This document shows, in pieces, positions 21,601 through 49,241 of a DNA stretch of 58,218 bases. The notes under the pieces are model-generated. The model saw nothing but the letters and a program-made list of their open reading frames with translations, had not been told where the DNA came from and ran no database searches. Origin of the DNA: a virus (Duplodnaviria; Caudoviricetes); IMG/VR virus record IMGVR_UViG_3300046171_000069, positions 1 through 58,218 of that record, one strand, 5' to 3'. The position numbers were made by a program, and so were the translations under genes. Each line of letters starts with the position of its first letter. The stretch's first letter is position 1.

Positions 21601-22271
21601 CTGGTGTAGGTATAGACGTCGCTTCTCGGGTGCGTTTGACCGGACTGATCATTCAGACAAACCGCTATCAAACTGACCCTTCAGCAGAAGAGTTTATTGG
21701 TTACTACCTTGGTGGTCCGGCGCTTAGTGTCGGTAAACGTCTTGGGCGCGGATTCTCTGATTTATATGATGGTGAGTTCCAACGAGGCGTCGAAAACCTC
21801 CTACCTGTCGGTATTTCTAATGCTTATAAAGTGCTCGGTCGTTATCAGCAGGATGGCGGCATCTACTCGCGTCGCGGAGACCCTATCTACGATGATATTA
21901 CTGGCGGAGAAATGGTAGGACAGTTCTTTGGATTTGCGCCGTCAGAATACACGCGGATTCAAGAGAACAACCAACGAGTTAAGAAAATTGACATAGCCTT
22001 ATCTCGAAAAGCATCTGAACTTCGCAAGCAATACTATCTTGCTACTCGCCAGAATGATTACGAGAAAGCTCGTGAAGTACTGAAAGAGATAAACAAGTAC
22101 AACCGTAATCACCCCAGCTTTGCGATCACACAGGATTCTATTGACCGGTCGATGAAGCAACACATGAAAACATCTACTGAGATGTACAACGGCGTAACGC
22201 TATCTCCAGCGATGCGTAGGATACTAGACGATCAGTTAGAAGCAGAGCGCAACGGTTTCATAGCCCCTTAA
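15681..22271 (+). CDS. Large polyvalent-type internal virion protein with zincin metallopeptidase motif
   Basis: 2196 aa; N-terminal hydrophobic Gly/Ala segment; GSFDPKTNTINL...TLMHEVGH...LDEFVSEA (HExxH plus downstream Glu); helical C-terminal region; last gene of the late arm. Confidence 0.75.
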   Translation: MLKISEIERALENAKRQGNAEAVQKITGILNRVRPKVEARPSREEQKRQYLDSLRESDFRVGDPSLGANIAGGFGSGFVGMGEMAALGAATLLEEEDELAARQKIQSVAEALRPERGDPDSISYKLASGLGSIAGIASPALLAAAAPISAPAAGAIGIGGAATLGIGAGAGEASERARAAGATEEERGTASLRGAAIGSLEVVPLTRIFRRLPKLRELFEKGGEEVKQEVKGLRKLFQEPQTALGRTGRTGLGEGAQEAAAGILQNLNERGYNVERELVDAGVLEEGAIGAGSGAILQAIVEAFTRGKPRGAPRTEEAPATEEEIVEEEQLLGLPAPVDPDELIQVRMPDGSTQEVPARIVEEARRKEREARETATQREQERRQEAIKDEERRGSTRVPTELIDDRLTADMSPEERARVRAQDEQIDAFTAERQAEQSKVDRKERQEKRAARKLGLRGDRIEDQPVLPGFEQDTEVQREMFGTRRVAGKDVPTIKRQKVTPESERLMRKPTPAPEQQEMRLEQPRAERRQIEQPLIGPKGGIPRRQKAPFKSATREPKPTPDIITEERLNELGVNRSSPLRNPKSGIIGKDLNDPAIRRRLTKFSQSTKLGSKKSRANVARLLEGISEKQGDLFTETTQGRGSATATGVRNAGITESEQVSSRASVPSAVPTVGTEPRVPSDGTGTEAVVAPEAGGVDDTGGRVGEPVRGTDTESASLETKTTTVSGQAKKATTGKQVTQKTTTSVTPAKKERKSRTTKGVVKRGVLSRPKLFEVPTDKDPVSDADVDAVEARLEEAVSRDESRSKTDERSALEAYFGRDERVIDALDRAIHDVVDESPRFTEQKGTSAETKAYFAQSGRENAKKVLAWAKKNLSEETNAWIKERTKQKKKALSRVSQRTVDVKKSEERKARNPSEMEAQAKVATQRVTEQYTNEQAYAEQEDARQQRDLDAEVQAIEEFFNEIPYELRTGDVVLGNTLHPTTAALLREGELTEALKVLASLTPNKDLARIANAFADKLGKTKVKLFSSKAKDSVAGSFDPKTNTINLNTADGISQHTLMHEVGHALTSATLANKSHPVTKQLTSLYNDVKDKFGTAYGAKNLDEFVSEAQSNERFRAELAGINPDGSNINALQRFLNIVGNLFRQVVGKKRKDIESAMTQADALINEILAPAPEYRDANALAMESTYAGVKQVADKIDALQKTVGKPLTKKGRAEFGQLGKETIDSLGEKYGDLALKFLDMNAYIDVARATNAKLGTVAQKALVAMERMRGASAQRDDATYKAIQPMERWFDSTTPEQTKLFNDIIYNREYGSTIFQVDPTLTRAQAEKKYKGKPVDGNDLWAIWQENQKQWKKLEPEGKTVYKDMQAFYRKQFEELKEVIFSRIETMADGDTQTIAKLKTEFEKKLFDRKGMDVYFPLVREGRYKIGFRYKPGKTPKGQDNFVFEMHQNRKDWLAQLREIESNPDMELVRSSDNESFVDYAKQAPSSSFVNQTLKMMQAKKVDGEVQEAFMRMVVSTLPESSLARSLQSRKNTAGHETDALYAIKTKGYDLGRQIEKLKFSGSMQNILSDLEKVSRTESEKFKPEEQWKLEQSIKDLQSRMNFAVSGAKYKEVEGVVRVANQMAFVGTIGFNTASAMVQTAQIPMVVMPMMMAKYGVKPTLQAMYRAMRLVMSARNHRPELDNLSAVKGKRLAQKATDAAGKFSPAYGLDAYYKQDGDKFVVRDDIDLSKAERKELEELAPLVKQASDRGHLNRSFMADAVGLLEGGRAKRDDGMGSKLLSGLDTGTAISAMMFNQAERFNRQVSMVLAYDLAKQEAKKKGETISEDVLIEEAFRETHRLNGGSTLETAPPVVRENVGRVAGMYKSYGMRMYTTMFSVGANALGVYDKMLKEQGLSDAEIKERVSVARKQAFGILGSSIFFSGIHGVPIYGAIQLVYDLFAGDEDDDFNSVVRDYVGEGWYKGAVNKILSEAGVGIDVASRVRLTGLIIQTNRYQTDPSAEEFIGYYLGGPALSVGKRLGRGFSDLYDGEFQRGVENLLPVGISNAYKVLGRYQQDGGIYSRRGDPIYDDITGGEMVGQFFGFAPSEYTRIQENNQRVKKIDIALSRKASELRKQYYLATRQNDYEKAREVLKEINKYNRNHPSFAITQDSIDRSMKQHMKTSTEMYNGVTLSPAMRRILDDQLEAERNGFIAP

Positions 22272-22273
22272 CG

Positions 22274-22304
22274 AAAAAACCCCCTTCGGGGGACCAAAGG
22301 GGGA
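22274..22304 (-). terminator. Intrinsic terminator at convergence of the two arms
   Basis: Minus strand CCCCC-GAA-GGGGG (or the longer CCCCCUUU/GAAGGGGG stem) followed by TTTTTT. Confidence 0.8.
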
Positions 22305-22380
22305 ATACTTTTCTTACAAAGGAGAACATATCAACAAACTACGTTTGTAGGAGCAACACGTAATTTGTCCCGATCAACAT
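22274..22380 (-). ncRNA. Candidate small RNA with two anti-RBS segments (GUGUUGCUCCUA, UGUUCUCCUU)
   Basis: Non-coding gap ending in a terminator. Both segments are complementary to the GGAG(A/C)AC box of early genes. Confidence 0.45.
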
Positions 22381-22381
22381 A

Positions 22382-22603
22382 TCACATTTTACGCCAAAAA
22401 CGTACCCCTAAGCACCCATTCTCAATCCTTACTCGACTAGTTATCTCCCAGCCTTTCTCGGTGCATATACGATTCACTTCTTTTATAGCGTCCTCGGTAT
22501 TGATACACGGGATGAATATAGAGGTACCGATACTCATGTTGTCCCAGTTGACTTCAATCCGTACCCCATCAGGTGCAAGATCATAAGTCCTCAAGATTTT
22601 CAT
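22382..22603 (-). CDS. Hypothetical protein following primase-helicase
   Basis: MKILRTYDLAPDGVRIEVNWD...GVRFWRKM; overlaps the end of the upstream gene. Confidence 0.7.
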   Translation of the reverse strand: MKILRTYDLAPDGVRIEVNWDNMSIGTSIFIPCINTEDAIKEVNRICTEKGWEITSRVRIENGCLGVRFWRKM

Positions 22604-25409
22604 CGTCGGGTTCCATGTCAAACTTCATAGCAATCACATCCGTAGGAGGTAGCTGTAGGTTGGTACCCTTTGTAAGCCGTACCTTCTTACGTTTGCCTTG
22701 GCACTTACTGATAATCTCGCTGACCAAGTGCGCGTAGTTTATTTGCAAATCACCACACCACTCCTTCAAAGGTTTAGGTTTAACATAAAACATCTTAGTG
22801 TCTGTTTCGTACCTAGCGATCAAACGTCCACGCGCAACCTGCTCGGGGATTACATGTTGGTCTAACCCGTTATCGTGTGTGCCTCGATTGTCCATCGTGC
22901 TTTTTATCTGAAGGATGTAGCTAATGTTTTCGCTAAAGAAGTCATCGAGAACATCGTAGACGCTACCTGCCATCTCATTCATGTTGCGCTTGTTTTGCGC
23001 GACTAGTTCAGTCACGGCCCACTTAAATACCTTCTGAACATCGAAGTCGTGCAGACCCGCTCGTTTAGCTATGAGCAAGCCGGATATGGTTGACGCTATA
23101 GTTGCTGACCAGAATCGGTTTTCGGACGTTAGCTCGGCCACCTTGTCTACGCGCTTCTGCACGTCTAGAACGATCTGACGGCACTCTGATAGGTTTTTAA
23201 GGATGTGCTGTATGTAAATCACCCCCGCGTGTCCATAGTTGTTCAGAAGGCTATTCTCGAAGGCGTCAGTGGTTTCCTTGTCTTTCACTGAGTCGAAGAT
23301 ACGTTCCACGCGACACTCAAGTACCCGCTGTGCCTCTGCTTTCGGCATAGCTTTCGCCATACTGATACGCTCTACAACGCTGGTGTTGGCGGTATACATC
23401 ATCAAGAGACTCCACCGGTCTCCACGGTAACGTTCTACGTTCGAGCTTTGAGACATACGCCCACGCTGTTGCCCACTCGTTCCTTGGTAAACAAGTTCTG
23501 ACATCTGCTTGGGAGCCATGTTTGTGATCTCGTCGATACCTGTCGGAAGACTGTGCATCAACTCTGCACGGTTCATCTTAAAGTTGTAGGTATCATCCTT
23601 CTGCAACACGAGCTGTTCTGGGTCGCCCCATATACCTGACGCGGCTAACAGTAGGGCGGTCTTACCGACACCGGAGTCTTTGTTATAGAAAGACACAGTG
23701 CCGCAGTTGGTATTCAGGAACTCCATCAACGGACTACCAAACCCCATGCCGAATGCAAACTGCTGAAGAACAAACCTATCTTCATTCCACAGTGACAGGT
23801 TTTCACGCCATGCCTCGTAGGTACCTTTAGGTTCAAAGGCTGGAAACAATCCTACTGTTTGGTTAGACGGCGGGTTGAACTCAACGCTATCAGCAGTGAC
23901 TTTTTGATTCCCAAGAATGAATCCACTCATGTCGTCAGTCCAACCAAACTGACGGTGCGCTTGATCTGCTGTGCTGGTAGCTTGCAACTCATCTACCCAA
24001 TGCAATGTATACGTCATTAGCTCATCCATTTTCTTCAAGGTAACGCCTCTCGAAGACAGCGCCTTACGGAATTCTTCTGTCGATGTGACAGCACTCATAG
24101 GCAAAGTGAACTCCCGCACACCGTCTCTCGGTAAGTGCAGACGCATAACTATCGCCTCGCCTACCTCGGGGTCGTGTACGCGTTTCACAACATACAAGTC
24201 GTTGTGGTACAGCCGCTTCTCTTCTACGTCACCTTCTTCATTAGTCGTCCTAATATATACCCCGCCGTTCACACCACGAACGTAAGGCGGAGGATACTTA
24301 GGTATCTCATAAGTTGTTTTAGGTTGGTTAGGTATCTCTAGTGCCGGGGCTTCAACATAAGTGCCGTCGTCCCCAACCTCGGCTTCTTTGAGCCGCCTAC
24401 CCAACACAATCGGCGATTTTACCTGCCCCCACTGCGGACAGTTCGGGCACACGTCAGGGTTAAACTCATCAAACTTCGCACACGTGTACGGACCTTTGAT
24501 TTGTCTGAGCTTATCCTGAGTATCTTCTGGCGTGTATTCGGGATGGTTTTTGGAGATGATGTGCATCGCCTTATCACTATCCGTACAGAACTTAGCGATA
24601 GATAACCCCGCTCGCCAGAGAGGTTCGCTTGTTTCTTCTTGGTGCCGGATGATGTTGTACAACTGCTCACAGCCATCACCACGTTGAGTCTTCACCAAGA
24701 TATCTTTAAACACATTTTCTTGATTACCCATCAGGTTGTGCATTGTTTGGCTCAACTCTTTGGGTATGTGTTTAGTCGGAACTGGTATCATTTCTCCGCC
24801 AAGCAATTCGGAGAATGTGTCAAAAACGACAGTCTCAAATCGCTCACCTAAGCCAAAAAAGCCTACGTCCGACGGAGGATTAGTCTTGTAGTTATGTGTG
24901 TCAGGAACTCTTAACACGCGTGCACCATCAGCGGTTACCGCAGGGTCAGCTAAGAAGTTCTGTTTTGCACACAAACGCTTCAGTCTTTCTGCTACGGGAA
25001 ACCAATCCTCATAGCACACCGGTTCCGATAGAAACCAATAGACGTGTACACCACGCCCCGAGTTAACCATCGTCGGTGTTGGTAGTTGGTTGGCACTACA
25101 AAACTTACGCAGTGCTTTGATTGCTTCTTCTTGCGAAGCAAAGTCTTTTGTCGGGCCACAATCGAGGTCAAGAAAGAACGACTGGAGATGTTTTACATTA
25201 TCAACTTTACGGGAGTTAGCTTCTTGGAACGTTGCTAGCCCGTAGTATACGTCGTACCCCTGCTGGTCAAACTGCGTTGCGGCTTCCACAACATCGTCGA
25301 TAGAGCTATAGAATTTTTGTGTCTTACGCTCGTCCGCCGATTTTGCCGCAAATATGCAATAGTGCCCCTCGCTACTAAGTACCCTCTCTAAAAATGTTTT
25401 CGTTTCCAT
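22581..25409 (-). CDS. AEP-family primase fused to DUF927-like region and P-loop helicase
   Basis: FFLDLDCG, VNSGRGVHVYW and RVLRVP (AEP motifs); Cys cluster; SGVGKT Walker A and GIDEIT Walker B. Likely start METK after GGTGG. Confidence 0.85.
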   Translation of the reverse strand: METKTFLERVLSSEGHYCIFAAKSADERKTQKFYSSIDDVVEAATQFDQQGYDVYYGLATFQEANSRKVDNVKHLQSFFLDLDCGPTKDFASQEEAIKALRKFCSANQLPTPTMVNSGRGVHVYWFLSEPVCYEDWFPVAERLKRLCAKQNFLADPAVTADGARVLRVPDTHNYKTNPPSDVGFFGLGERFETVVFDTFSELLGGEMIPVPTKHIPKELSQTMHNLMGNQENVFKDILVKTQRGDGCEQLYNIIRHQEETSEPLWRAGLSIAKFCTDSDKAMHIISKNHPEYTPEDTQDKLRQIKGPYTCAKFDEFNPDVCPNCPQWGQVKSPIVLGRRLKEAEVGDDGTYVEAPALEIPNQPKTTYEIPKYPPPYVRGVNGGVYIRTTNEEGDVEEKRLYHNDLYVVKRVHDPEVGEAIVMRLHLPRDGVREFTLPMSAVTSTEEFRKALSSRGVTLKKMDELMTYTLHWVDELQATSTADQAHRQFGWTDDMSGFILGNQKVTADSVEFNPPSNQTVGLFPAFEPKGTYEAWRENLSLWNEDRFVLQQFAFGMGFGSPLMEFLNTNCGTVSFYNKDSGVGKTALLLAASGIWGDPEQLVLQKDDTYNFKMNRAELMHSLPTGIDEITNMAPKQMSELVYQGTSGQQRGRMSQSSNVERYRGDRWSLLMMYTANTSVVERISMAKAMPKAEAQRVLECRVERIFDSVKDKETTDAFENSLLNNYGHAGVIYIQHILKNLSECRQIVLDVQKRVDKVAELTSENRFWSATIASTISGLLIAKRAGLHDFDVQKVFKWAVTELVAQNKRNMNEMAGSVYDVLDDFFSENISYILQIKSTMDNRGTHDNGLDQHVIPEQVARGRLIARYETDTKMFYVKPKPLKEWCGDLQINYAHLVSEIISKCQGKRKKVRLTKGTNLQLPPTDVIAMKFDMEPDDENLEDL

Positions 25410-25498
25410 GTACCCACCCATTGCTTGCAACGTTACGGCAGAGACGTTTGTCCCCCGCCCTGCCGTAACGCGGTTCAATTACCATTGTGACGAGTAAC

Positions 25499-27663: not shown

Positions 27664-29191
27664 GCAGTTCTTTGTATAAATCGATCATTTTTGTGTGTAC
27701 GTCTATTCTACTATCTAGTAGTGAGTAAACACGCTTTTCTACGGGCGATCCTTGCAACTGTACGACAGTACATTTGTGGTCTTGCCCTGATCGATGCACG
27801 CGAGCGTTGGCCTGTGCGTAAGTTTCGAGGGAGCTGGTTGGTCCCCACCACACCACAGTGTTTGCGGCTGTTAGGGTGACACCGTGCGCCGCTGACTGCG
27901 GCTGGATAACAAGAACACGTGGATCGTCTTGTTCTTGAAACTGTTTGAAGATAGCTGTTCTGTTTGGCGCTGACACGTCACCACGTATGACTTCAGTCGT
28001 TATACCGTCTGATCTAAGTTTATCAGTGAGGATGTCGATGGTGTGCTTGAACGGTACGAACACCAGCACCTTCTTACTGCTTTCATCGATGACCTCTCGC
28101 AGTACCTTGTAGCGATGCTTGATGTCGAACTCTAATGCCTCTCCGTCATCGGTGTAGACTGCACCAGATGCTATTTGCAGTAGCTTACTCATATTGATAG
28201 CGGCGTTGGCGGCAGTGATCTCTTCACCTGCGGCTTGTATAACAAGTCTCTGCTTGAGGTCGTTGTAGTATTTGTTCTGTTGACGTGTCAGTTCTACCTC
28301 ACGCTTGGTGTAAACCATCTCAGGTAGATCAAGACATTCTTCTTTGGTAAATCGTATGGCAGGTTGTAGTGCTTCGTACACGATCTGCGTGGCGTTTTCT
28401 TTCGGCACCCATTTAAATTGTGTGACCTTGTGCATCACCATGTCTCGGAACGAACTGAAGAACCGTGGCACACCTACAGGATTGACTAGCTTCGCAAGTC
28501 CGTACGCATCAAGAGGTGACTGCGCGGCAGGTGTACCTGTCATCAACCACAACCACGTCTTGTCATTTAATAGTTTGAACAACGTCTTCCAGCGTTTAGT
28601 CTGTGGGTTCTTGTAGTGTGTTGCCTCATCGATAATGATGCAGTCGAAGCCGCCGTTGGCGATCTCATCGAGCACGATCTCTACTCCATCGTAGTTGATG
28701 ATGACGTACTCAGATCCCTCGTTAATAATCTTCTTCCGCTTTTGTTTGTTCCCGTAAGCCACCGACACCGTGCGGTGCATAGCAAAACTAAACAAATCAT
28801 TACGCCATGCACTATCCATAATCGATAGCGGGCATATAATCAGCACGCGGTTTATCTTGCCTTGCGTCATCAGAAAGTCCGATGCCCAGATAGCCGATGC
28901 GGTCTTCCCCGTACCCTGCTCGTTAAAGCAGAAAGAACGTCGGTTCATCGTAAGAAAGGCGGCTGTTGTCTTCTGGTGGTCGTATGGCTTGTATTGTCCG
29001 GGCCAGTTGTAACGTCCTTGAATAGGTGATGGGACGTTAATGTTTAAATTCTTGAGGCTGTGAGCTTCGTCTACACCCCAGTTAACAACAACTTTGTTAT
29101 CCGAAAGTTCCCGACTTTTTTGGACTGTCGTTGTCACTTTGTTTGGGTTCCGTAGGCGCAACAAAAGCGCCTTGTTGTCTAATATTTGCAC
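27656..29191 (-). CDS. SNF2-family (SF2) helicase
   Basis: EQGTGKT, IIDEAT, MTGTP, HGVTLT and QANARVHRSGQ motifs. Likely GTG start at 29191 right after GGAGAACAAC. Confidence 0.9.
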   Translation of the reverse strand: MQILDNKALLLRLRNPNKVTTTVQKSRELSDNKVVVNWGVDEAHSLKNLNINVPSPIQGRYNWPGQYKPYDHQKTTAAFLTMNRRSFCFNEQGTGKTASAIWASDFLMTQGKINRVLIICPLSIMDSAWRNDLFSFAMHRTVSVAYGNKQKRKKIINEGSEYVIINYDGVEIVLDEIANGGFDCIIIDEATHYKNPQTKRWKTLFKLLNDKTWLWLMTGTPAAQSPLDAYGLAKLVNPVGVPRFFSSFRDMVMHKVTQFKWVPKENATQIVYEALQPAIRFTKEECLDLPEMVYTKREVELTRQQNKYYNDLKQRLVIQAAGEEITAANAAINMSKLLQIASGAVYTDDGEALEFDIKHRYKVLREVIDESSKKVLVFVPFKHTIDILTDKLRSDGITTEVIRGDVSAPNRTAIFKQFQEQDDPRVLVIQPQSAAHGVTLTAANTVVWWGPTSSLETYAQANARVHRSGQDHKCTVVQLQGSPVEKRVYSLLDSRIDVHTKMIDLYKELLD

Positions 29192-29414
29192 GTTGTTCTC
29201 CATCGGCGCGCCGTTCAGTCGGCGTCATATTACGGCTTTTTATTTGTTCTAATTGTCGGTCAACTGATTTGACGAGCTTCGGTAAGTCTTCAAGCTGAAA
29301 CTCGTCTAAGTAATTTGCGAACTCTACTCCAAGTGCGGACTCCACCTCGTGCATGTAGAAACCGCCCATCAATAAACTCCTCGCGCGATCCCATACGACT
29401 AAAGGGAAAGCCAT
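29097..29414 (-). CDS. Hypothetical protein
   Basis: TAATG coupling to the upstream gene. The ~95-nt overlap with the helicase makes the 3' end uncertain. Confidence 0.5.
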   Translation of the reverse strand: MAFPLVVWDRARSLLMGGFYMHEVESALGVEFANYLDEFQLEDLPKLVKSVDRQLEQIKSRNMTPTERRADGEQRANIRQQGAFVAPTEPKQSDNDSPKKSGTFG

Positions 29415-32197: not shown

Positions 32198-32475
32198 CTT
32201 GGCAACCCCGTAAGACGCATAAACTTCTTAACCAGTCTTTTCCAACACACCCGCAGTTTTCTTGTGGTGCGTTTTGGTTTTGACGAGGCGGTCGTTTCTT
32301 CGACGTGTCGAGTGACAACCTCAGCAGTCATCCGCTTCGCATTCTCTTCTCTGGTGATCTTGTACGCGTAGCCATAAGACACCGACAAAACTTTCGATAC
32401 CATTCGAGGGCTAGCGTCAGGGTTTAACTTAAGATACTCACGTATCTTGTCTGCTTTTGACTTGTACTGATTCAT
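32194..32475 (-). CDS. Small basic HTH-like protein
   Basis: KIREYLKLNPDASPRMVSKVLSVSYGYAYKI; RBS AGGAGCACAAC. Confidence 0.6.
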   Translation of the reverse strand: MNQYKSKADKIREYLKLNPDASPRMVSKVLSVSYGYAYKITREENAKRMTAEVVTRHVEETTASSKPKRTTRKLRVCWKRLVKKFMRLTGLPR

Positions 32476-32546
32476 GTTGTGCTCCTATTGATGTTGAAAA
32501 AGCTATACGCGACCGGCATTGTCCGGCGCGACTTTGATACCAGTTG

Positions 32547-33120: not shown

Positions 33121-33164
33121 GTTGTTCTCTCCTTGGTAGTCCACGGACTACCGTTTTACAGACA

Positions 33165-33187
33165 CAAAAAAGGGGGCCGAAGCCCCC
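33165..33187 (-). terminator. Intrinsic terminator
   Basis: GGGGGC-TTCG-GCCCCC followed by TTTTTT. Confidence 0.9.
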
Positions 33188-33203
33188 AACGTTTCTCACA
33201 CTA

Positions 33204-33524
33204 CTAAGACCGGTACACCCAAAAGGTATGCTCGTCGATACGTCTACCCACATCGTCAATCGACTGCATGGGTGGCTTTACCTTGAGCGTGTTAAGCACC
33301 GCCAGCTTTCGCTGTATCCATTCGGGCAACTCGTCCACCGAATCGTATGCCCCCTCAACTTGCGTGTCAACACCTTCCATACCAAAACATGAGACTAAGA
33401 CACTTTTCGTATTAGGGTATATCACAACGCGGTAGATGTTGTCATCGTGTGGTAACAAGTTATCTACAATACGTTCCATTTCCTCCAACGCTTGGATTGG
33501 AACGACCTTAGTCTGCAAGGACAT
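33204..33524 (-). CDS. Hypothetical early protein
   Basis: LPEWIQRKLAVL...DDVGRR motif, similar to the C-terminus of the upstream gene (LPEDLTRKLAVL...DGVG). Confidence 0.7.
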   Translation of the reverse strand: MSLQTKVVPIQALEEMERIVDNLLPHDDNIYRVVIYPNTKSVLVSCFGMEGVDTQVEGAYDSVDELPEWIQRKLAVLNTLKVKPPMQSIDDVGRRIDEHTFWVYRS

Positions 33525-34441
33525 AGAACACCCCGCGACCTGCGCTCACACCCACACCATCCACAAAGTCCTCGGTGTCGAGCATTTGCAGTACAGCAAG
33601 TTTACGTGTGAGATCCTCGGGTAACATGTCCTCGGTGTAGCGGTTGTACGCTTGGTCAAGCTCGTAGCTGTACGGATTGTCTTGCGTACCCTTGACGACA
33701 TCGAACAACATCTTGTCACGTGACTCGTATGCCATAACGCAGTAGAACGTCACACCTTCTGATGGCTGGTTAGCAAGCCGCTCATCTGCGGCGACCATCG
33801 CCTTCACGTCGCTCTCGAACTCAGGATCAAGGAACTCATGACCCATGTCGAGCAGGTGCTTTAGCTCTTTGTACAGTCTCGAATTCTGGTTAGGCTTTTT
33901 GTTGTATACGCTAGTCACAATGTCCACCACCTTCTCTGCTGTTGTACCTACGTCCTTAGTTAGCTTGTCGAACTCTTTACGCACACCATCCTTGAGCACC
34001 CCTGCTTTTATGCCAGCCAACCTAATCGGCGAAGGCCGACGCAGATACGTCTTAGCATTTTTGAGCGCGGTGTTTATGTTGATGGATGTTTTCGTGTGTC
34101 GGTTGTCGTTACCCCAACTGTACTTGTCGTTGGTAATCGCCCACGAGTGTACGCAGTACGTCGGTGTCCATCCGTTGGCCTTGTTGTCACGCACGTCGGT
34201 GTAACCGATCCAACCGATAGCCCACGGACAGTCGTCACGTGTCACCCAGTAAGACGTTCTGTTACGTCGAACAAACACAATGTCTGTCTCACGTGCACAG
34301 AGTGCTTTACCTACCTCGTCCTTGAACGTATCGAGATGTATGCGGTTCTGTTGTTCATCCTCACTGCCAGCCCAACCGTACTCAGTGCGCGGTCGGCGCG
34401 GCCTCCTTGATCTTCTCTACTGCAATCCAATTAAAGCTCAT
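33508..34441 (-). CDS. Hypothetical early protein (frameshift near 34390)
   Basis: ATG at 34441 after AGGAGAACAAC; joins ORF 33508..34278. Confidence 0.7.
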
Positions 34442-34475
34442 GTTGTTCTCCTATTTGGTAGTGCCGGCACTACCG

Positions 34476-34640
34476 TTATCCGTTGCGTACTTTGTCGTAC
34501 GCGTTTTTGATTACTTCGACCTCACGTTGTGCGGCCTTGGGTGTAAGCTCATCGTGGTGTAGCTCACCGCGCACAAGTATTGCGTTGCAGTGTTCTCTTA
34601 CGATCTTATCTATGATTGCTGTTGCAAATGCGTATTCCAT
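34476..34640 (-). CDS. Small hypothetical protein (54 aa), absent from ORF track
   Basis: GGAG RBS; MEYAFATAIIDKIVREHCNAILVRGELHH...; fills the gap exactly. Confidence 0.6.
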   Translation of the reverse strand: MEYAFATAIIDKIVREHCNAILVRGELHHDELTPKAAQREVEVIKNAYDKVRNG

Positions 34641-34641
34641 A

Positions 34642-35866
34642 TCACATGTCTCCAGATTTTATGTGAACTTGCTTACCTGTATCAGGCTTTGCTGTTTTGT
34701 TGTCCAGTATGCACCATAGCACAGGACAGTCCCATTGACCCCATGATCCAAACACGTACCCATCAGTCAGTACCACACAGGCTTGCGGGTTGATGTTGTT
34801 GTCACGTATGTAGTTGGGTACACACTCGACGCTGGTACCACCACCACCGACTGGCTTGGTCGCCTTGGGTAGGTTGTCAAGCTCGTGTGTATCGTATGAC
34901 TCGTCACCACGTACGCTTGGAGTCCCAGTACAACACGCGTATGCGTTCTGGCATGAGCGATTGACAGATCTGACGTATCTCACTCATGAACAATGTCAAC
35001 TCGGTTTGACCAATAGACCCTGACGTGTCAATGGCTATGACAAGCTCGCCGACCTGATCGCTGATACCACTGGGCATATAGTACCCAGACGATACGTAAC
35101 GCCTGTTAGGACGTGACCACGTGACTATAGTCACTACCCGCACACGTGTTCTGGATGAACTCGCGTAGCACCTCGCGCCAGTTGATCTGCGGCTCCAGCA
35201 ACTCACCGAACCGATCACGCTCGGAGCCATCGCCTACCTTGCCAGCGACCATCGCACCCTGACGTATGGCCTCGTCGATGTCACGTGCAAGCTCGCGCTT
35301 CTCGTCGTCGGTCAACTCCTGAGCACCCTCCCAGTCGTGCTCGTCGAACCCGCCATGCGTATTGACTCCACTGGCAACGTTGGTATCGGTCACCGTCACC
35401 GTCGCCATCTTCTGGTGACGAGTTCTCACATAGATCCTTGAACACTCGGGCCGCGTCCCAACCACGGTACTTGTAGTCGCGGTGCCCTTGGGCTGGCATG
35501 ACTGCCCAGCCGTCGGTGTTGTCGTCGCTGATCTTGATGTTGATCACATGGTCACATGCGATGTTGGCAAGCGTTGGCGTCTTGCTTGTACATCCACTCC
35601 CACGTGGTGAGATGTTTGTACAGCTTGTGGTACACCTCGTGTAGTACCAGAAACCGAAGCTCAGGATCGTTTATCTCCTCGACAAACGCACGTCCGTACA
35701 ACTCATCACGTCCGTTAGTACACGCGGTGGGCACAGTGTCAGACACCGTGCGATCACCGACCATCACCACACCCGCCAGCGCTACATACTTGGGGTTGCT
35801 GATAATGTCATACACAGCTTTGCTTACACGTTGCTCCGCTGTCAGTTGTTTACCTATAGATAACAT
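34642..35866 (-). CDS. Metallopeptidase (DUF2201-like, HExxH) plus vWA domain protein, multiple frameshifts
   Basis: PTACTNG, FLVLHEVYH, INWREVLREF, VIAIDTSGSI (MIDAS), GGGGT, VVLTDG. Confidence 0.85.
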
Positions 35867-35892
35867 GTCGTTCTCCTTGTGGTAGTGCGGCA

Positions 35893-36987
35893 CTAACTAC
35901 TTCTTGTCTGCGCGAACATGTAGTTGTTAGCCATCGCCCAGTCAGTGAACTTGCGGTTAGTCATCACGACCTTGCGGTGTGCGTAGCTGTCACGTGTCAC
36001 ACCACCAGCAAACATACCCTGCGCTTCCATGTCGAGACGTGGCAAGTACGTCATCCACGCGTCGATCCAGTCAGCCGACATCGTAGCTAATGACCTGTAA
36101 ACAACCATACACACAGCCGCCGCGCTGTCCGGTACGCGTGCGTTCAGCGGGTCATCCTTGATCGACTGGAGTGACGGTAGCTGATCGGCCAGCTTCACAA
36201 ACGCCATGAGGTCCATCGCACCACGGTCGCCGATTGTACCCATGAGTAAACTTGTCAGGGTCTGATCGTCATACAGGTGTCGTTGCTTGAGCCAGTCGGA
36301 CGCGGCTTCCAGCGAGCGCGGTGTCACAAACGCCGCACGTTGCGCCTTGGGATGGTAGATGTAGGGATTGTCATCTGGATCTTTGACATCCTCGAACCCG
36401 TGGAATAACTGCGGGTTGTCTTTACACCAGCCCAGTAGTGCGTGATCGACACCGGCATTGATCGCATAGTCCTCGATCCACTCGATGTTGCTCGGCTTGC
36501 GTAGCGTCACCACTGTTATGCGGTTGCGTGCGTGTGGTGGTAACAAGTCACCGACACCCTCGGCCCCAAGGTTAGTGGTAGCAAACACTATCGAGTCAGG
36601 GTGTAGCTCGTAGCCGCCGACCTTGCGCTCCAACATCACACGTAGTAACGCGTTCTTGACTGCGGGGTTGGCCTTACCGTACTCGTCGATCATGAGGATG
36701 ATCGGCTTGCCATGATGCAGACCCAGCTCCTCGTTCGTCGCAAATTTGACGAAATCGGCAGAGTCGAGCGTTGCCATCTTGGGGATCATGATGTCGCCTA
36801 GATCCTTGGTGGTACAGTCGAAGTAACACGGTACGTGGTCAGGTAGTGTGTCTGATAACGTGTTAAGTAGTGAGGACTTACCCGTCCCCATGTGACCCTG
36901 TACAAGGATCGTCCGTTGATTACCGCCGTGCTCGATAGCGTTGGCGACTTGGTTCAGGTTCAGTGCATACATTTGTTGTGCGTTCAT
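35893..36987 (-). CDS. MoxR-like AAA+ ATPase
   Basis: GHMGTGKS Walker A, LMIDEYGKA Walker B, FATTN, RNR, TPRS; adjacent vWA partner. Confidence 0.88.
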   Translation of the reverse strand: MNAQQMYALNLNQVANAIEHGGNQRTILVQGHMGTGKSSLLNTLSDTLPDHVPCYFDCTTKDLGDIMIPKMATLDSADFVKFATNEELGLHHGKPIILMIDEYGKANPAVKNALLRVMLERKVGGYELHPDSIVFATTNLGAEGVGDLLPPHARNRITVVTLRKPSNIEWIEDYAINAGVDHALLGWCKDNPQLFHGFEDVKDPDDNPYIYHPKAQRAAFVTPRSLEAASDWLKQRHLYDDQTLTSLLMGTIGDRGAMDLMAFVKLADQLPSLQSIKDDPLNARVPDSAAAVCMVVYRSLATMSADWIDAWMTYLPRLDMEAQGMFAGGVTRDSYAHRKVVMTNRKFTDWAMANNYMFAQTRSS

Positions 36988-37039
36988 GTTGTTCTCCAAT
37001 GTTAGTGTGGCACTAACTTTTTAGTAGTGTGTTTGTTGG

Positions 37040-37975
37040 TTAGATGTCGAGTGATGGTAAAGACTTGATGGCATTGTCCACGGCACGTTTGGTCTCGGCA
37101 CGTAGAAACGCGTCATCACGTAGTGCGTCCGGTGTGATACCACGCAAGGCATCCTCTAGCTGTAAGCGCATAGCCGACATCTGAGAGTCACCGGTCACGT
37201 TGCATACGTCGAGCAAGTCCACCATGTCGAGCACGTTGTCCACGAGCGAGTCACGGAATATCTTTTTCTTCTCGCTGTCGCCGTAGTCGAGACGTTCTGA
37301 CATCTTAGTGAGCGCGTCGTATACCCGATGCCACACATCGTCCATCGCACGGTTAATCATCTGAGAGTAAAAACCCTCGTAGTGAGACTTTAGTTGCTCA
37401 GTCGCTTCAGTGCCGATGTCAATACGAAAGTCGCCCGCGTCAGGTAGTGGGATGTAGTTGAGCCGGAACCCGAACTTAGACGCAATGGAATCGACAGAGG
37501 GGTAGTCGTCCGCACGGAACAACGCACCTAAACGTGCTTGTGCTTGACTGATCTCCCACTCGTACGAATCGAGAAACACCTTGGCTAGACGCTCGTACTC
37601 GTTTTGCATGTCGGTCATGGCTTGGTGGTACTTGGCATATTGCGCGGTAGGTAGTAGGCGCAGACCCGTGTCAGACCAAGGCATAGACATAGAGTAGTGC
37701 ATGTTGCGGATGTTACCTGTCAGCTTTTGGATAGCGGTTAGCTCCTCGCTGTTACCTAGTAGCTTCTTATGCACGTTGGCAATACCGGAGTCGGCACCGT
37801 TAGTGCGTGTCACATCAGTTGATGCACGTTTGTCGAGCTTGCGGCCTGTCCATGTGCTGATGGATAGCTCAACCAACATAGCAGAGGACGCGATGGATGG
37901 CGTACTGATAGCTGGTGCTACGTTGTCAGTTGGTAGTCCGTGGACTACCGAAGTGTTGCTATTGTCGTGTTGCAT
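37040..37975 (-). CDS. Conserved early protein (DUF3150-like) of AAA/vWA module
   Basis: SSAMLVELSISTWTGRKLDK...PWSDTGLRLLP...DYP; AAGGAGAACGAC RBS. Confidence 0.7.
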   Translation of the reverse strand: MQHDNSNTSVVHGLPTDNVAPAISTPSIASSAMLVELSISTWTGRKLDKRASTDVTRTNGADSGIANVHKKLLGNSEELTAIQKLTGNIRNMHYSMSMPWSDTGLRLLPTAQYAKYHQAMTDMQNEYERLAKVFLDSYEWEISQAQARLGALFRADDYPSVDSIASKFGFRLNYIPLPDAGDFRIDIGTEATEQLKSHYEGFYSQMINRAMDDVWHRVYDALTKMSERLDYGDSEKKKIFRDSLVDNVLDMVDLLDVCNVTGDSQMSAMRLQLEDALRGITPDALRDDAFLRAETKRAVDNAIKSLPSLDI

Positions 37976-38031
37976 TGTCGTTCTCCTTGAACGTTGTTGT
38001 AGTTGGTAGTCCGTGGACTACCGTGGTTAGG

Positions 38032-38100
38032 ACTGGGGAGCCGTGACACGCCATATGTAAACGTGTACATACGCAGGAATTACGCGCACGACCCCCCAGT
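38032..38100 (-). ncRNA. Structured 5' leader hairpin beginning at predicted transcription start
   Basis: Three stacked helices (14, 5 and 8 bp) with five G-U pairs that form only on the minus strand. Confidence 0.65.
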
Positions 38101-38106
38101 TGTATT

Positions 38107-38135
38107 ATTATCTCACATATAACAAATCATGTCAA
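38107..38135 (-). promoter_or_regulatory. sigma70-like early promoter
   Basis: TTGACA-N17-GATAAT. Confidence 0.8.
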
Positions 38136-38162
38136 GTTTTACGTTATTGTGGGTAGAAGTGT

Positions 38163-38548
38163 AATGTTCTGTTGTATTGTGTATTGTTCTTATAATGTTC
38201 GTTTTTGAAATGGCGTAACTTTTTGATTTACAAGCAATGTTCGAATGTTCGCGTTTTTGAGGAGATAAGAGCTACCCTGAGAGGGGTCTCTCGATTCTCT
38301 CAGAAACGAACAATACAAACGGAAATACTTTTACAGAAGCGTGTAATTTTTTAGAAAACGAACATTATAAAGATTATTAAGATTAGATAAGATAGAACAC
38401 TTTTTGATAGGCAAGAATTGTCAACGCCTTGCATAGGATGGTACCAGATGTCACCAAAATATAATGTACGCACATGCTTTTTAAAAAGCGAACATTAGCC
38501 GAACATTACGAACATTAGCCGAACATTACAAAATCGTTTCCGAACATT
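38163..38548. repeat. Iteron-like CGAACATT/AATGTTCG array with AT-rich segments (candidate origin)
   Basis: About 11 copies in two opposed orientations, plus a 15-bp perfect inverted repeat at 38191-38205 / 38355-38369. Confidence 0.75.
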
Positions 38549-38554
38549 GTGCTG

Positions 38555-38729
38555 AGGCTCGGCGCGACATGATTAACTGGTATCAACTTAGTAGTCCGTG
38601 GACTACCGTAGCCCGGGAGCAGGCCGCATTGCACACACGTGATAACACGTTAGGCTCGGCGCGGCACAAATAACTGGTATCGAAAGGCTCGGCGCGATGA
38701 GGCTCGGCGCGGCATATATAACTGGTCTC
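38555..38729. repeat. Bipartite repeat AGGCTCGGCGCG-N7-TAACTGGT(A/C)TC
   Basis: Full copies at 38555, 38652 and 38700; left half only at 38685. Confidence 0.9.
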
Positions 38730-38742
38730 AAACGGCAGGCAC

Positions 38743-38765
38743 AAAAAAACCCCGCCGAAGCGGGG
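38743..38765 (-). terminator. Intrinsic terminator
   Basis: CCCCGC-TTCG-GCGGGG followed by TTTTTTT. Confidence 0.9.
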
Positions 38766-38772
38766 TGAGTTG

Positions 38773-38940
38773 TTAGCGTACATCTATGTAGCGGGCTAGT
38801 GAATCGACGCCGGTGAGCAGTGCCACACTGAGCACTGCTGATACCAGAGCGGTAACCCACATAAAATTAAGCAGTGCCATCATGGTGGATAGAATGGACA
38901 CTGATGCGAAGATGATAAGAATGCACATCAATATAATCAT
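38773..38940 (-). CDS. Small hydrophobic membrane protein (55 aa), absent from ORF track
   Basis: MIILMCILIIFASVSILSTMMALLNFMWVTALVSAVLSVALLTGVDSLARYIDVR; AAGGT RBS; bounded by terminators. Confidence 0.6.
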   Translation of the reverse strand: MIILMCILIIFASVSILSTMMALLNFMWVTALVSAVLSVALLTGVDSLARYIDVR

Positions 38941-38953
38941 AACGTGTTACCTT

Positions 38954-38978
38954 AAAAAGGAAGGGCCCCGAAGGGCCC
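38954..38978 (-). terminator. Intrinsic terminator
   Basis: GGGCCC-TTCG-GGGCCC followed by TTCCTTTTT. Confidence 0.8.
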
Positions 38979-38984
38979 GATGGG

Positions 38985-39635
38985 TTAGAGTGATTTGATC
39001 ACTGCGTTGATGGCTTTTTTGACTTTGGCCGCGTCGTAGTCGGGTGCCTCGTCTTTTTCGCATTGAGCCACTACTTTTGCGAGCGCTTCCAAGATTTTGG
39101 TCTTAGGTGACTTAGGTGTTTTAGCCTGTCCACCCGTACCGTCAACTACATCTTTAGAGTATGCCCAGCCTTCCTGAAACTCTCCCTCGACCTCTTTCCC
39201 TTCCACATCGTGAACGGGGATTTTCTTAGACCAAATCACTTGATCTAATTGCTTAGAGATTTTACCGAGTCGGGAGGCAGGTTGACGGTTCCAATAATCC
39301 CAGTTGCCAGTAGTGGGTTCGGTTTTTTTCTGGGTAGGTGTTTTAGTCACATACTGCATACCCTCTTTACCGAGCGCTAGAATTTCCTGCGCTCCCGCTG
39401 GTAAGCCTTTCGCAATGTGGTCTATTAACCATTTTCGCTCGGCCGGAGTGCATCCCTCTGGGTTATTTTCCGCGTGAAATGGTGAACAATGTTCAGCCTT
39501 TTCGAACCCAGCCTCCTTAAGTGCGCATAGCACTGAGAAGCGTAGATCCTCGGTGGTTAACTCAGCATTAATAGATGCTGTGATCATTTTTCCTAGGCCC
39601 GAGTCTAGGTTGCGGGTAAATGGTACATTTGTCAT
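38985..39635 (-). CDS. First gene of the early arm, hypothetical
   Basis: 216-aa ORF with AGGA RBS, its own promoter and terminator. Confidence 0.75.
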   Translation of the reverse strand: MTNVPFTRNLDSGLGKMITASINAELTTEDLRFSVLCALKEAGFEKAEHCSPFHAENNPEGCTPAERKWLIDHIAKGLPAGAQEILALGKEGMQYVTKTPTQKKTEPTTGNWDYWNRQPASRLGKISKQLDQVIWSKKIPVHDVEGKEVEGEFQEGWAYSKDVVDGTGGQAKTPKSPKTKILEALAKVVAQCEKDEAPDYDAAKVKKAINAVIKSL

Positions 39636-39721
39636 ATCACTAATTCCTGTAAGTGATTTAAAAGATGGTAGTCCGTGGACTACCGTTAGTGCCTAGTGGG
39701 TTGTTCCCCGAAGGCAGGGCC

Positions 39722-48706: not shown

Positions 48707-48776
48707 GTGTGTTATAAAAAATGAATCCCTGACAGTCACATCCCGTGACTGACATTGCCCAAGACAGGAGATTCAC

Positions 48777-49241
48777 ATGGGACAAACTACTTTTTCAGGA
48801 CCAGTGCGGTCTGAGCGCGGTTTCACTCCGGTAGGTTCAACGGCTGTAGTAGCAATTACAGCAGAAACAACTCTTACTTACGCTGACCATGTTGGCCGTA
48901 TTATTGAGATCAATGATGCAGACGGCGCGGTTACACTTCCTTCAATTACGTCTGACACCCTTGGTGCAACCTACAAGATTTTTGTTGGTACAGATTCTAC
49001 AGATCTGGATGTTAAAACTGATGGTACTGACAAGTTTGTAGGCTCTCTCGCAGTTTCAGGCACTACAACGGCGGCGTTTGCTCCTGCCGCGTCTAACGAT
49101 GTTATCTCTATGAACGGTACTACAACTGGCGGCGATCGCGGATCTATTATTGAGATCACAGCTATCGCTACAGCAGAGTACATGGTATCAGGTACACTAG
49201 TTGGTTCAGGCACAGTAGCTACTCCATTCGCAGACTCTTAA
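48777..49241 (+). CDS. Minor structural protein (Thr/Gly-rich beta protein)
   Basis: MGQTTFSGPVRS start, ending ATPFADS; AGGAG RBS. Confidence 0.75.
   Translation: MGQTTFSGPVRSERGFTPVGSTAVVAITAETTLTYADHVGRIIEINDADGAVTLPSITSDTLGATYKIFVGTDSTDLDVKTDGTDKFVGSLAVSGTTTAAFAPAASNDVISMNGTTTGGDRGSIIEITAIATAEYMVSGTLVGSGTVATPFADS

Follow-up and report, generated by a model that had tools for sequence, protein, structure and literature searches.

Phage P22 makes a small RNA, sar, which pairs with the ribosome-binding site (RBS) of the phage gene ant, and sRNAs of the RsaE/RoxS type use several exposed C-rich words to target the Shine-Dalgarno (SD) sequences of a set of mRNAs. According to passages of a review, phages P1 and P7 produce the antisense RNA c4, which binds around the RBS of a phage mRNA and blocks its translation, probably through words that lie in loops; the phage sRNAs named there either have host functions as their targets or, as c4 does, affect a single phage operon (PMC12197685). 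In Alphaproteobacteria, the cuckoo/CcsR RNAs are described as two to four hairpins with variable stems, which carry a 9-nt anti-SD-like C/U-rich motif, CCUCCUCCC, in their loops (PMC4615179). In phage T4, RegB cuts GGAG in early SD sequences (consensus GGAGRAYARAA) and spares late mRNAs, and RegA binds to the AUG or immediately 5' to it (PMC3014915).

In the present study, we analysed an uncultured marine phage record of 58,218 bp with an estimated completeness of 94%; this whole stretch of DNA is called the window below. The element under study was a 110-nt gap (22272-22381) between two converging arms, which would specify a small RNA with anti-SD words. The c4 RNA of P1/P7 was the closest mechanistic relative, being a phage small RNA that blocks the RBS of a phage mRNA; c4 targets one operon (ant), whereas the marine element would address several unlinked genes with a common module. 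The two also differed in position, the marine element lying where the replication arm reaches its 3' end and having a putative -10 of its own. The sar RNA is cis-encoded, fully complementary and directed at a single target, whereas the marine RNA would be trans-encoded, partially complementary and directed at several targets. The closest functional analogue was the T4 RegB/RegA pair, by which a class of early mRNAs is inactivated via its start regions. RegB and RegA are proteins, whereas the marine agent is proposed to be a base-pairing RNA. The early module GGAGAACAAC (e.g., 36987-36997) resembled the RegB/S1 cleavage consensus GGAGRAYARAA (PMC3014915); this likeness may be a coincidence, or both may favour A-rich sequence downstream of GGAG. 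None of the selected ORFs that were scanned matched a RegB/RegA-type family.

The likeness to the cuckoo/CcsR RNAs consisted of hairpins with variable stems that display an anti-SD-like C/U-rich loop motif. Those RNAs are cellular, whereas the marine RNA had one loop word (CUCCUA) and a main, single-stranded linker word of the UUCUCC type, and the window RNA lacked the two to four adjacent hairpins, each with a CCUCCUCCC loop, by which the class is recognised (PMC4615179). One group of relatives (subfamily 2), with CCCCU words in loop and linker, was most similar to RsaE/RoxS; the organisms and sequences differ, and there was no Rfam match. For the window, no Rfam family, C4 included, was found over the gap at gathering thresholds, and the matches around the gap at E ≤ 10 were all below threshold (PyrR with 22.3 bits against a threshold of 54, ncr1241, NmsRb and PhotoRC-I). 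The sole gathering-score match in the window lay elsewhere: at 48727-48779 on the plus strand, right ahead of the ORF at 48777-49241, a Mu-gpT-DE RNA scored 68.9 bits against a gathering score of 49. Our search of the open-access literature and preprints found no description of the element or of the phage group. A multi-target RBS-blocking RNA of this kind would probably constitute a new phage sRNA family.

The window consisted of three arms (a plus-strand structural arm, a minus-strand early/replication arm and a second plus-strand arm), and the features that framed and composed the gap were as follows:

ending at 22271, plus strand: structural arm, whose last product is a 2,196-aa polyvalent, DarB-like protein
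about 40119 down to 22382, minus strand: early and replication arm
from about 40483, plus strand: second plus-strand arm
22581-25478, minus strand: DUF927 primase-helicase, the penultimate feature of the early arm, before the small ORF
22382..22621, minus strand: small ORF of 73-79 aa, the last gene of the early arm, with the C-terminus ...LGVRFWRKM
22384-22383 (TG) and 22381-22376 (hexamer), minus strand: extended -10-like motif TG-A-TATGTT, recognised by its conservation in relatives
22274..22369, minus strand: predicted small RNA of about 95-96 nt, with a putative 5' end at G22369 (6 nt past the -10) and a 3' end in the U-tract
22333..22369, minus strand: predicted 5' stem-loop SL1, with two G-U pairs among the 12 bp of its basal stem in the fold
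22348..22355, minus strand: second anti-SD word UGCUCCUA, with CUCCUA as the apical loop of SL1 and UG closing its stem
22319..22328, minus strand: linker seed UGUUCUCCUU, the complement of (A)AGGAGAAC(A)
22274..22303, minus strand: intrinsic terminator, with a G+C-rich 10-bp stem (22303-22280) and a U6 tract (22279-22274)

The minus strand of 22272-22396 read ...GUGUUGCUCCUAC...GAUAUGUUCUCCUUUG... and then a terminator, in agreement with the letters quoted in the earlier note. In order on this strand, the gap comprised the TGA stop with TATGTT, 6 bases, the 12-bp hairpin, the linker GAUAUGUUCUCCUUUGUAAGAAAAGUAUU and the terminator hairpin, and the stop TGA of the small ORF (22384-22382) formed part of the promoter-like motif. 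The terminator scan found a hairpin with a U-tract on the minus strand only, which was kept in element-bearing relatives. The predicted 5' end, G22369, was deduced from promoter geometry. The predicted 96-nt RNA had a minimum free energy (MFE) of -34.4 kcal/mol (z = -5.91), and none of 200 dinucleotide shuffles was as stable. In the MFE fold for the window, the UUCU of the seed was paired in a weak second hairpin. GUCG, the 5' seed flank of the extended complement, sat within the SL1 stem. C/U-rich loop motifs recurred among the relatives.

The gap was also a mosaic boundary that adjoined the variable C-terminus of the polyvalent protein. Related contigs L005, L008, L014 and L018 ended within about 50 nt past the terminator, and the near-identical relatives L003, L004, L011 and L012 diverged abruptly beyond it. 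A listing of sequencing runs contained none on record as RNA; among the contigs of three runs, those of X1 and X2 left 22272-22381 uncovered, and in X3, a diverged relative, the gap was replaced.

The relatives were found via the primase: a search gave 44 loci, and primase alignment gave 80 more, from at least 582 related viral-contig stretches. These relatives had 46-96% amino acid identity and shared the layout behind the same small ORF. In nearly all loci, a spacer of about 6 nt separated TGATAnnnT from a hairpin with the base GACAG...CUGUC; the word (G)UUCUCC came next, then sometimes a second hairpin, and finally a terminator. A covariance model (R1) built from 32 relatives yielded 54 hits in 92 sources (1,187,810 bases, both strands), with a maximum of one per source, and all hits were on the primase strand directly past the small ORF. 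The seed UUCUCC was at least 90% conserved in the 32 aligned relatives, and at least one anti-SD 4-mer was predicted to be unpaired (p ≥ 0.7) in 50/50 distinct predicted RNAs. Down to 37-41% primase identity, seed, -10 and base of the hairpin persisted in a gap whose remaining sequence had completely diverged. These results firmly established, at the level of sequence, that the element is conserved and built like an sRNA gene. The earlier note had proposed an RNA of the early strand, derived from the 3' UTR or from an extended -10, before a terminator; the relatives supported a discrete element on that strand, with a -10-like motif at the place the note had named and an intrinsic terminator.

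A near-identical search of cultured phages gave no match, and a protein search returned distant relatives only, the best being Pseudomonas phage Rollin (28% identity), which had no gap after the corresponding genes. Relatives also occurred in four metagenome bins labelled Parvibaculum, Verrucomicrobiales, Sulfitobacter and Aquiluna, labels that are unreliable as host evidence. The element was recognisable in two of these binned relatives (L129 and L130) and absent in L131; for L128, the stretch at hand stopped short of the ORF's stop codon, and this relative was left out.

The positions -12T, -11A and -7T are the most conserved of the sigma-70 -10 element. In the 32 aligned relatives, T1, G2, A3, T4 and A5 of the gap motif were invariant, T9 was at least 90% conserved, and the other motif positions varied freely. 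The conserved positions presumably correspond to the -15/-14 TG plus the -12T, -11A and -7T of an extended -10. A two-hexamer sigma-70 scan of the gap detected no promoter and no -35, and it is from the conservation that we infer an extended -10. The pattern TGATAnnnT was present in 58 of the 73 distinct downstream regions; 50 of these 58 passed a strict automatic test for terminator plus anti-SD word, and the other 8 showed both by eye. Two regions (L121 and L126) read TGATATATA at the motif, and two more (L079 and L080) had the stop TAA and then TATACT, with the seed displayed in a hairpin loop. Neither motif nor element was seen in 11 of the 73 regions, all of which ended in TAA or TAG. The ORF stop at element-bearing loci was TGA in 60 distinct regions, an association that rests on few independent losses because most element-less loci fell in one clade. 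The spacing between the motif and the hairpin base was 6-7 nt in most relatives.

The small ORF was examined as a candidate RNA-binding partner of the element. No Pfam or PHROG family matched it, and an alignment of 34 sequences contained nine invariant columns (P8, D9, G10, W17, S25, F27, G63, W67 and R68). The ORF was strongly kept also in clades without the RNA element. Its AlphaFold model predicted a beta-alpha-beta-beta unit (pLDDT 82.9), and no PDB fold matched the model at E ≤ 0.001, an AcuB domain coming closest at E = 0.11.

The motif GGAGAAC occurred six times in the 58,218-bp window and was not enriched (6.96 ± 2.57 expected; 73 of 100 shuffles reached six). The copy at 22321-22327 (plus strand) complemented the gap motif. 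All five others (5/5) were minus-strand copies placed 3-4 nt ahead of the starts at 37975, 36987, 35866, 34441 and 29191. These are the genes whose RBS the earlier note had paired with the seed, and exact complementarity of 8-9 nt was recovered for each of them. The start regions were as follows:

37975..37986, minus strand: GGAGAACgacaATG, start region of a 311-aa protein; 9 nt exact
36987..36997, minus strand: GGAGAACaacATG, start region of a 364-aa ATPase (phrog_1297); 8 nt, and the best predicted duplex (-18.2 kcal/mol)
35866..35876, minus strand: GGAGAACgacATG, start region of the ortholog of a 408-aa protein, broken by frameshifts in the window; 9 nt exact
34441..34451, minus strand: GGAGAACaacATG, start region of the ortholog of a 307-aa protein, with a frameshift soon past the start; 9 nt exact
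29191..29201, minus strand: GGAGAACaacGTG, start region of an SNF2-family helicase of 511 aa; 8 nt
32473..32487, minus strand: TAGGAGCAcaacATG, start region of a 93-aa protein, the complement of the word in the SL1 loop

The 9-nt values were computed as exact Watson-Crick complementarity, and the 8-nt values for 36987 and 29191 were read off printed contexts. The second pairing that had been claimed, between the loop word and the gene at 32475, was likewise present: TAGGAGCA, located 4 nt before the ATG, was the complement of UGCUCCUA. This pairing was not kept in the relative G001, whose ortholog had GGAGAAC instead. Comparison with G001 also showed that 35866 and 34441 are true gene starts. 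The early start regions paired better than the late ones only weakly (Mann-Whitney p = 0.07), with a best duplex of -18.2 kcal/mol for early versus -14.1 kcal/mol for late regions. Eight early sites reached -12 kcal/mol or below, compared with 2.6 for shuffled linkers (5 of 300 shuffles reached eight). The window alone made a modest case and did not settle chance versus non-chance; the relatives decided the question. The earlier note had spoken of a whole early regulon, which was overstated: several early start regions did carry the motif, amounting to 5-7 of the approximately 21-25 starts called in the early arm by a heuristic gene caller.

Three early genes that are intact in G001 were split over several frames in the window (35866-34645, 34441-33511 and 32197-30360, minus strand). 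They are the orthologs of the 408-aa protein, the 307-aa protein and a 609-aa DNA polymerase, and their state points to assembly indel errors or pseudogenes.

An 18-bp palindrome, GGTAGT(C/G)C..G(G/C)ACTACC, was present in eight copies, which were confined to the early arm (33150-39682, minus strand):

39682, 38605, 38020, 37947, 37015, 35895, 34472 and 33150, minus strand: palindrome copies

Five of the copies lay 3-17 nt upstream of start regions of the GGAGAAC type, and G005 and G006 had a different palindrome, GTTAGGGnnnnCCCTAAC, in the same position. Candidate roles for the palindrome are those of an operator, an RNA hairpin and a phage-specific promoter element.

In the relatives, the complementarity of the seed extended to 10-17 nt and reached the AUG, and many seed complements were a copy of the full early start module. 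The complete genome G005 had the seed CAUGUCGUUUCUCC, with GUUUCUCC in the RNA and GGAGAAAC at the early sites. All five direct copies of its exact 10-mer GGAGAAACGA fell in early start regions, and the element held a single inverted copy; relative to other lineages, one extra base was seen in the seed and in the start regions alike. G006 had four GGAGAACGAC start regions on the early strand and an inverted copy in the element, and G001 had matches of 13 and 12 nt. For the ortholog of the 311-aa protein, the match to its own seed was 13 nt in G001 and 16 nt in G005 (17 nt with a wider flank). Seed variants were accompanied by site variants: the seed AUUCUCCAAA went with the sites UUUGGAGAAU in L088 and G003, CAUGUUCUCCC went with GGGAGAACAUG in G004, and GUUCUCCUUUG went with CAAAGGAGAAC in L105, where the match was extended on the other flank. 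In the window, the matches were shorter than a G001-type seed would make with the window sites (12 nt), because the window clade has lost the GUCG flank.

Subsequent counts covered 23 early arms of at least 9 kb. Their start regions matched their own 20-nt seed over at least 10 nt in 24 cases, compared with 0.585 expected when all but the CUCC core was shuffled (maximum of 4 in 200 shuffles), and over at least 11 nt in 17 cases, compared with 0.14 expected; these counts are non-independent, because the lineages share ancestry and each genome repeats its start modules as cassettes. At a threshold of 9 nt, 31 start regions in 14 arms matched their own seed. The SNF2 helicase accounted for eight of them, the most of any gene, and the remaining matched genes were those for the ATPase, SSB and the orthologs of the 311-, 408-, 307-, 133- and 92-aa proteins. 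In most of subfamily 1, complementarity between the predicted RNA and a shared early start module was thus established. In line with the expectation that the seed would be conserved and would co-vary with the early RBSs, UUCUCC was at least 90% conserved among the aligned relatives, and matches of 10-17 nt changed together with their sites. As in the class of trans-acting sRNAs, the element had a 3' intrinsic terminator, a conserved accessible seed and, except in subfamily 2 and the G002 lineage, co-varying target complementarity beyond chance.

Collectively, we consider that the element probably encodes a trans-acting sRNA of approximately 95 nt, which would pair with early start regions and lower their translation. 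In the proposed mechanism, a host-type extended -10 that overlaps the stop of the last early gene would start transcription on the minus strand, and transcription would end at the intrinsic terminator. The 5' hairpin would protect the RNA, and one or two C/U-rich anti-SD words would be exposed, in the linker and often also in a hairpin loop. These words would pair with the SD and spacer of early and replication mRNAs that share GGAGAAC-(G/A)AC-AUG, and in the relatives the pairing would extend to the AUG. Such pairing would keep 30S subunits off the early mRNAs and lead to lower translation, and late genes with GGAGAU-type sites would largely escape. The RNA might in this way take the role of early-to-late timer that had been suggested for it.

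The best-surviving alternative, which we regard as unlikely for the family at large, accepts a real RNA element and gives it another aim. The RNA would act as a general anti-SD RNA on host or other phage mRNAs, or would be a 3' UTR of the primase and small ORF that acts in cis or is processed. Only the C/U-rich words were universal, and any anti-SD word matches any SD. In subfamily 2 (seeds CCCCUCUC or CCCUCCU, with CUCCCCU loops), no own-start match longer than 7 nt was found in the 11 of 13 loci tested (arms of at least 5 kb). In the G002 lineage, the seed GUCUAUCUCC had no exact complement elsewhere in the 31-kb contig, and the near matches were one site with one mismatch per strand. Subfamily 2 and the G002 lineage keep generic anti-SD motifs only, and subfamily 2 is best read as having a general anti-SD RNA that acts on host mRNAs or in cis. 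The gap had no -35 element, which would fit a 3' UTR, and in several distant relatives GGAGAAC at the end of the small ORF could pair with GUUCUCC about 50 nt downstream. However, the window clade had no such intramolecular partner, carrying UGGCGUAAA there instead, and the -10 positions were conserved with no coding need. The matches of 10-17 nt to the phage's own early starts were far above the shuffled-flank expectation and co-varied, which also argues for early targets of the phage itself.

The codons UGG AGA ACn (W-R-T) closed the small ORF in L018, L024, L025, L026, L029, L030, L032 and L037. In any read-through transcript of these relatives, GGAGAAC would lie about 50 nt upstream of the GUUCUCC seed, and intramolecular pairing or self-targeting by such a transcript is possible.

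A second alternative, which we judge improbable, is that no regulatory RNA is made. The gap would then hold a terminator with a stabilising hairpin, or a DNA-level site (protein-binding, origin or recombination boundary), and its likeness to the start modules would be a relic of an inverted duplication kept by recombination. The mosaic boundary, at which several contigs end, is consistent with this proposal, and DNA exchange is conceivable as the early start modules are repeated cassettes with the 18-bp palindrome. However, the element did not contain the palindrome that accompanies the start modules, and what survived in an otherwise diverged gap was the seed with the -10 and the base of the hairpin. 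The strand evidence also spoke for RNA. The basal helix of SL1 (GACAG/CUGUC) was 90.9% paired in 41 distinct sequences, and two-sided changes were found in 9 cells compared with 1.7 in shuffles (0 of 500 reached 9), with all four pairs affected. G-U pairs, which would mismatch on the opposite strand, were frequent in this helix, and the inner stems were wholly different between lineages, yet each of them folded. On the early strand of 53 distinct regions, there were 137 anti-SD 4-mers versus 11 SD 4-mers, and the shuffle control gave a mean of 58.8 anti-SD 4-mers with a maximum of 89 in 300. At least one anti-SD site was present in 51/53 regions and at least two separate sites in 31/53, the second often in a hairpin loop. 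The G-U pairs and the strand-specific motif bias thus indicated selection on one RNA strand.

A third alternative, that the plus-strand SD-like words start a small plus-strand gene, appears very improbable. It had been stated that these words lead to no ORF, which was correct for the first word, as no start lay within 40 nt of it; after the second word, a 73-codon TTG frame (22365-22586) began 11 nt downstream, and the antisense frames were not conserved. An ATG was well placed in L039 (45 codons), in L043 (37 codons) and in L029, L030 and L032 (18 codons each). However, among 27 distinct elements, 11 had no start within 40 nt and 6 had frames of at most 3 codons. Of 75 distinct loci, 20 had antisense frames of at least 60 codons, which disagreed in start position and start codon, and the words sit behind the terminator hairpin of the late operon. 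As a conserved feature, a plus-strand gene was rejected, since its frames were not conserved among the relatives. Finally, a chance likeness between a CU-rich 3' UTR and purine-rich RBSs would agree with the window, where GGAGAAC was not above chance and the window-only statistics were weak, but it is hardly credible for an element conserved in 54 places with extended matches that co-vary.

In the window, several late genes (e.g., starts 47761, 48777, 49255 and 53393) had SD extensions of the GGAGAU(A/U) type and early genes had GGAGAAC, which suggests two classes of start region, early versus late. A tentative extension, which we hold to be possible but doubtful, is that a private SD extension defines two translation classes, GGAGAAC(GAC)AUG for early genes versus GGAGAU for late genes. 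The accumulating sRNA would shut the early class off, and the seed and the code would co-evolve in each lineage of a large group of uncultured marine phages. If this is true, the sRNA would be an RNA counterpart of T4 RegB/RegA, that is, an RNA answer to early shut-off, and the bases just past the SD core could act as an address label. RNA-based control in lytic phages is little explored, and the present family, with at least 582 related primase loci, is a large one that contains natural seed variants.

Near the head of the early arm, at approximately 38475-38505 on the minus strand, three tandem TAATGTTCG words (ctaatgttcgtaatgttcggctaatgttcgc) were observed in non-coding sequence, and these may be iterons or operator repeats.
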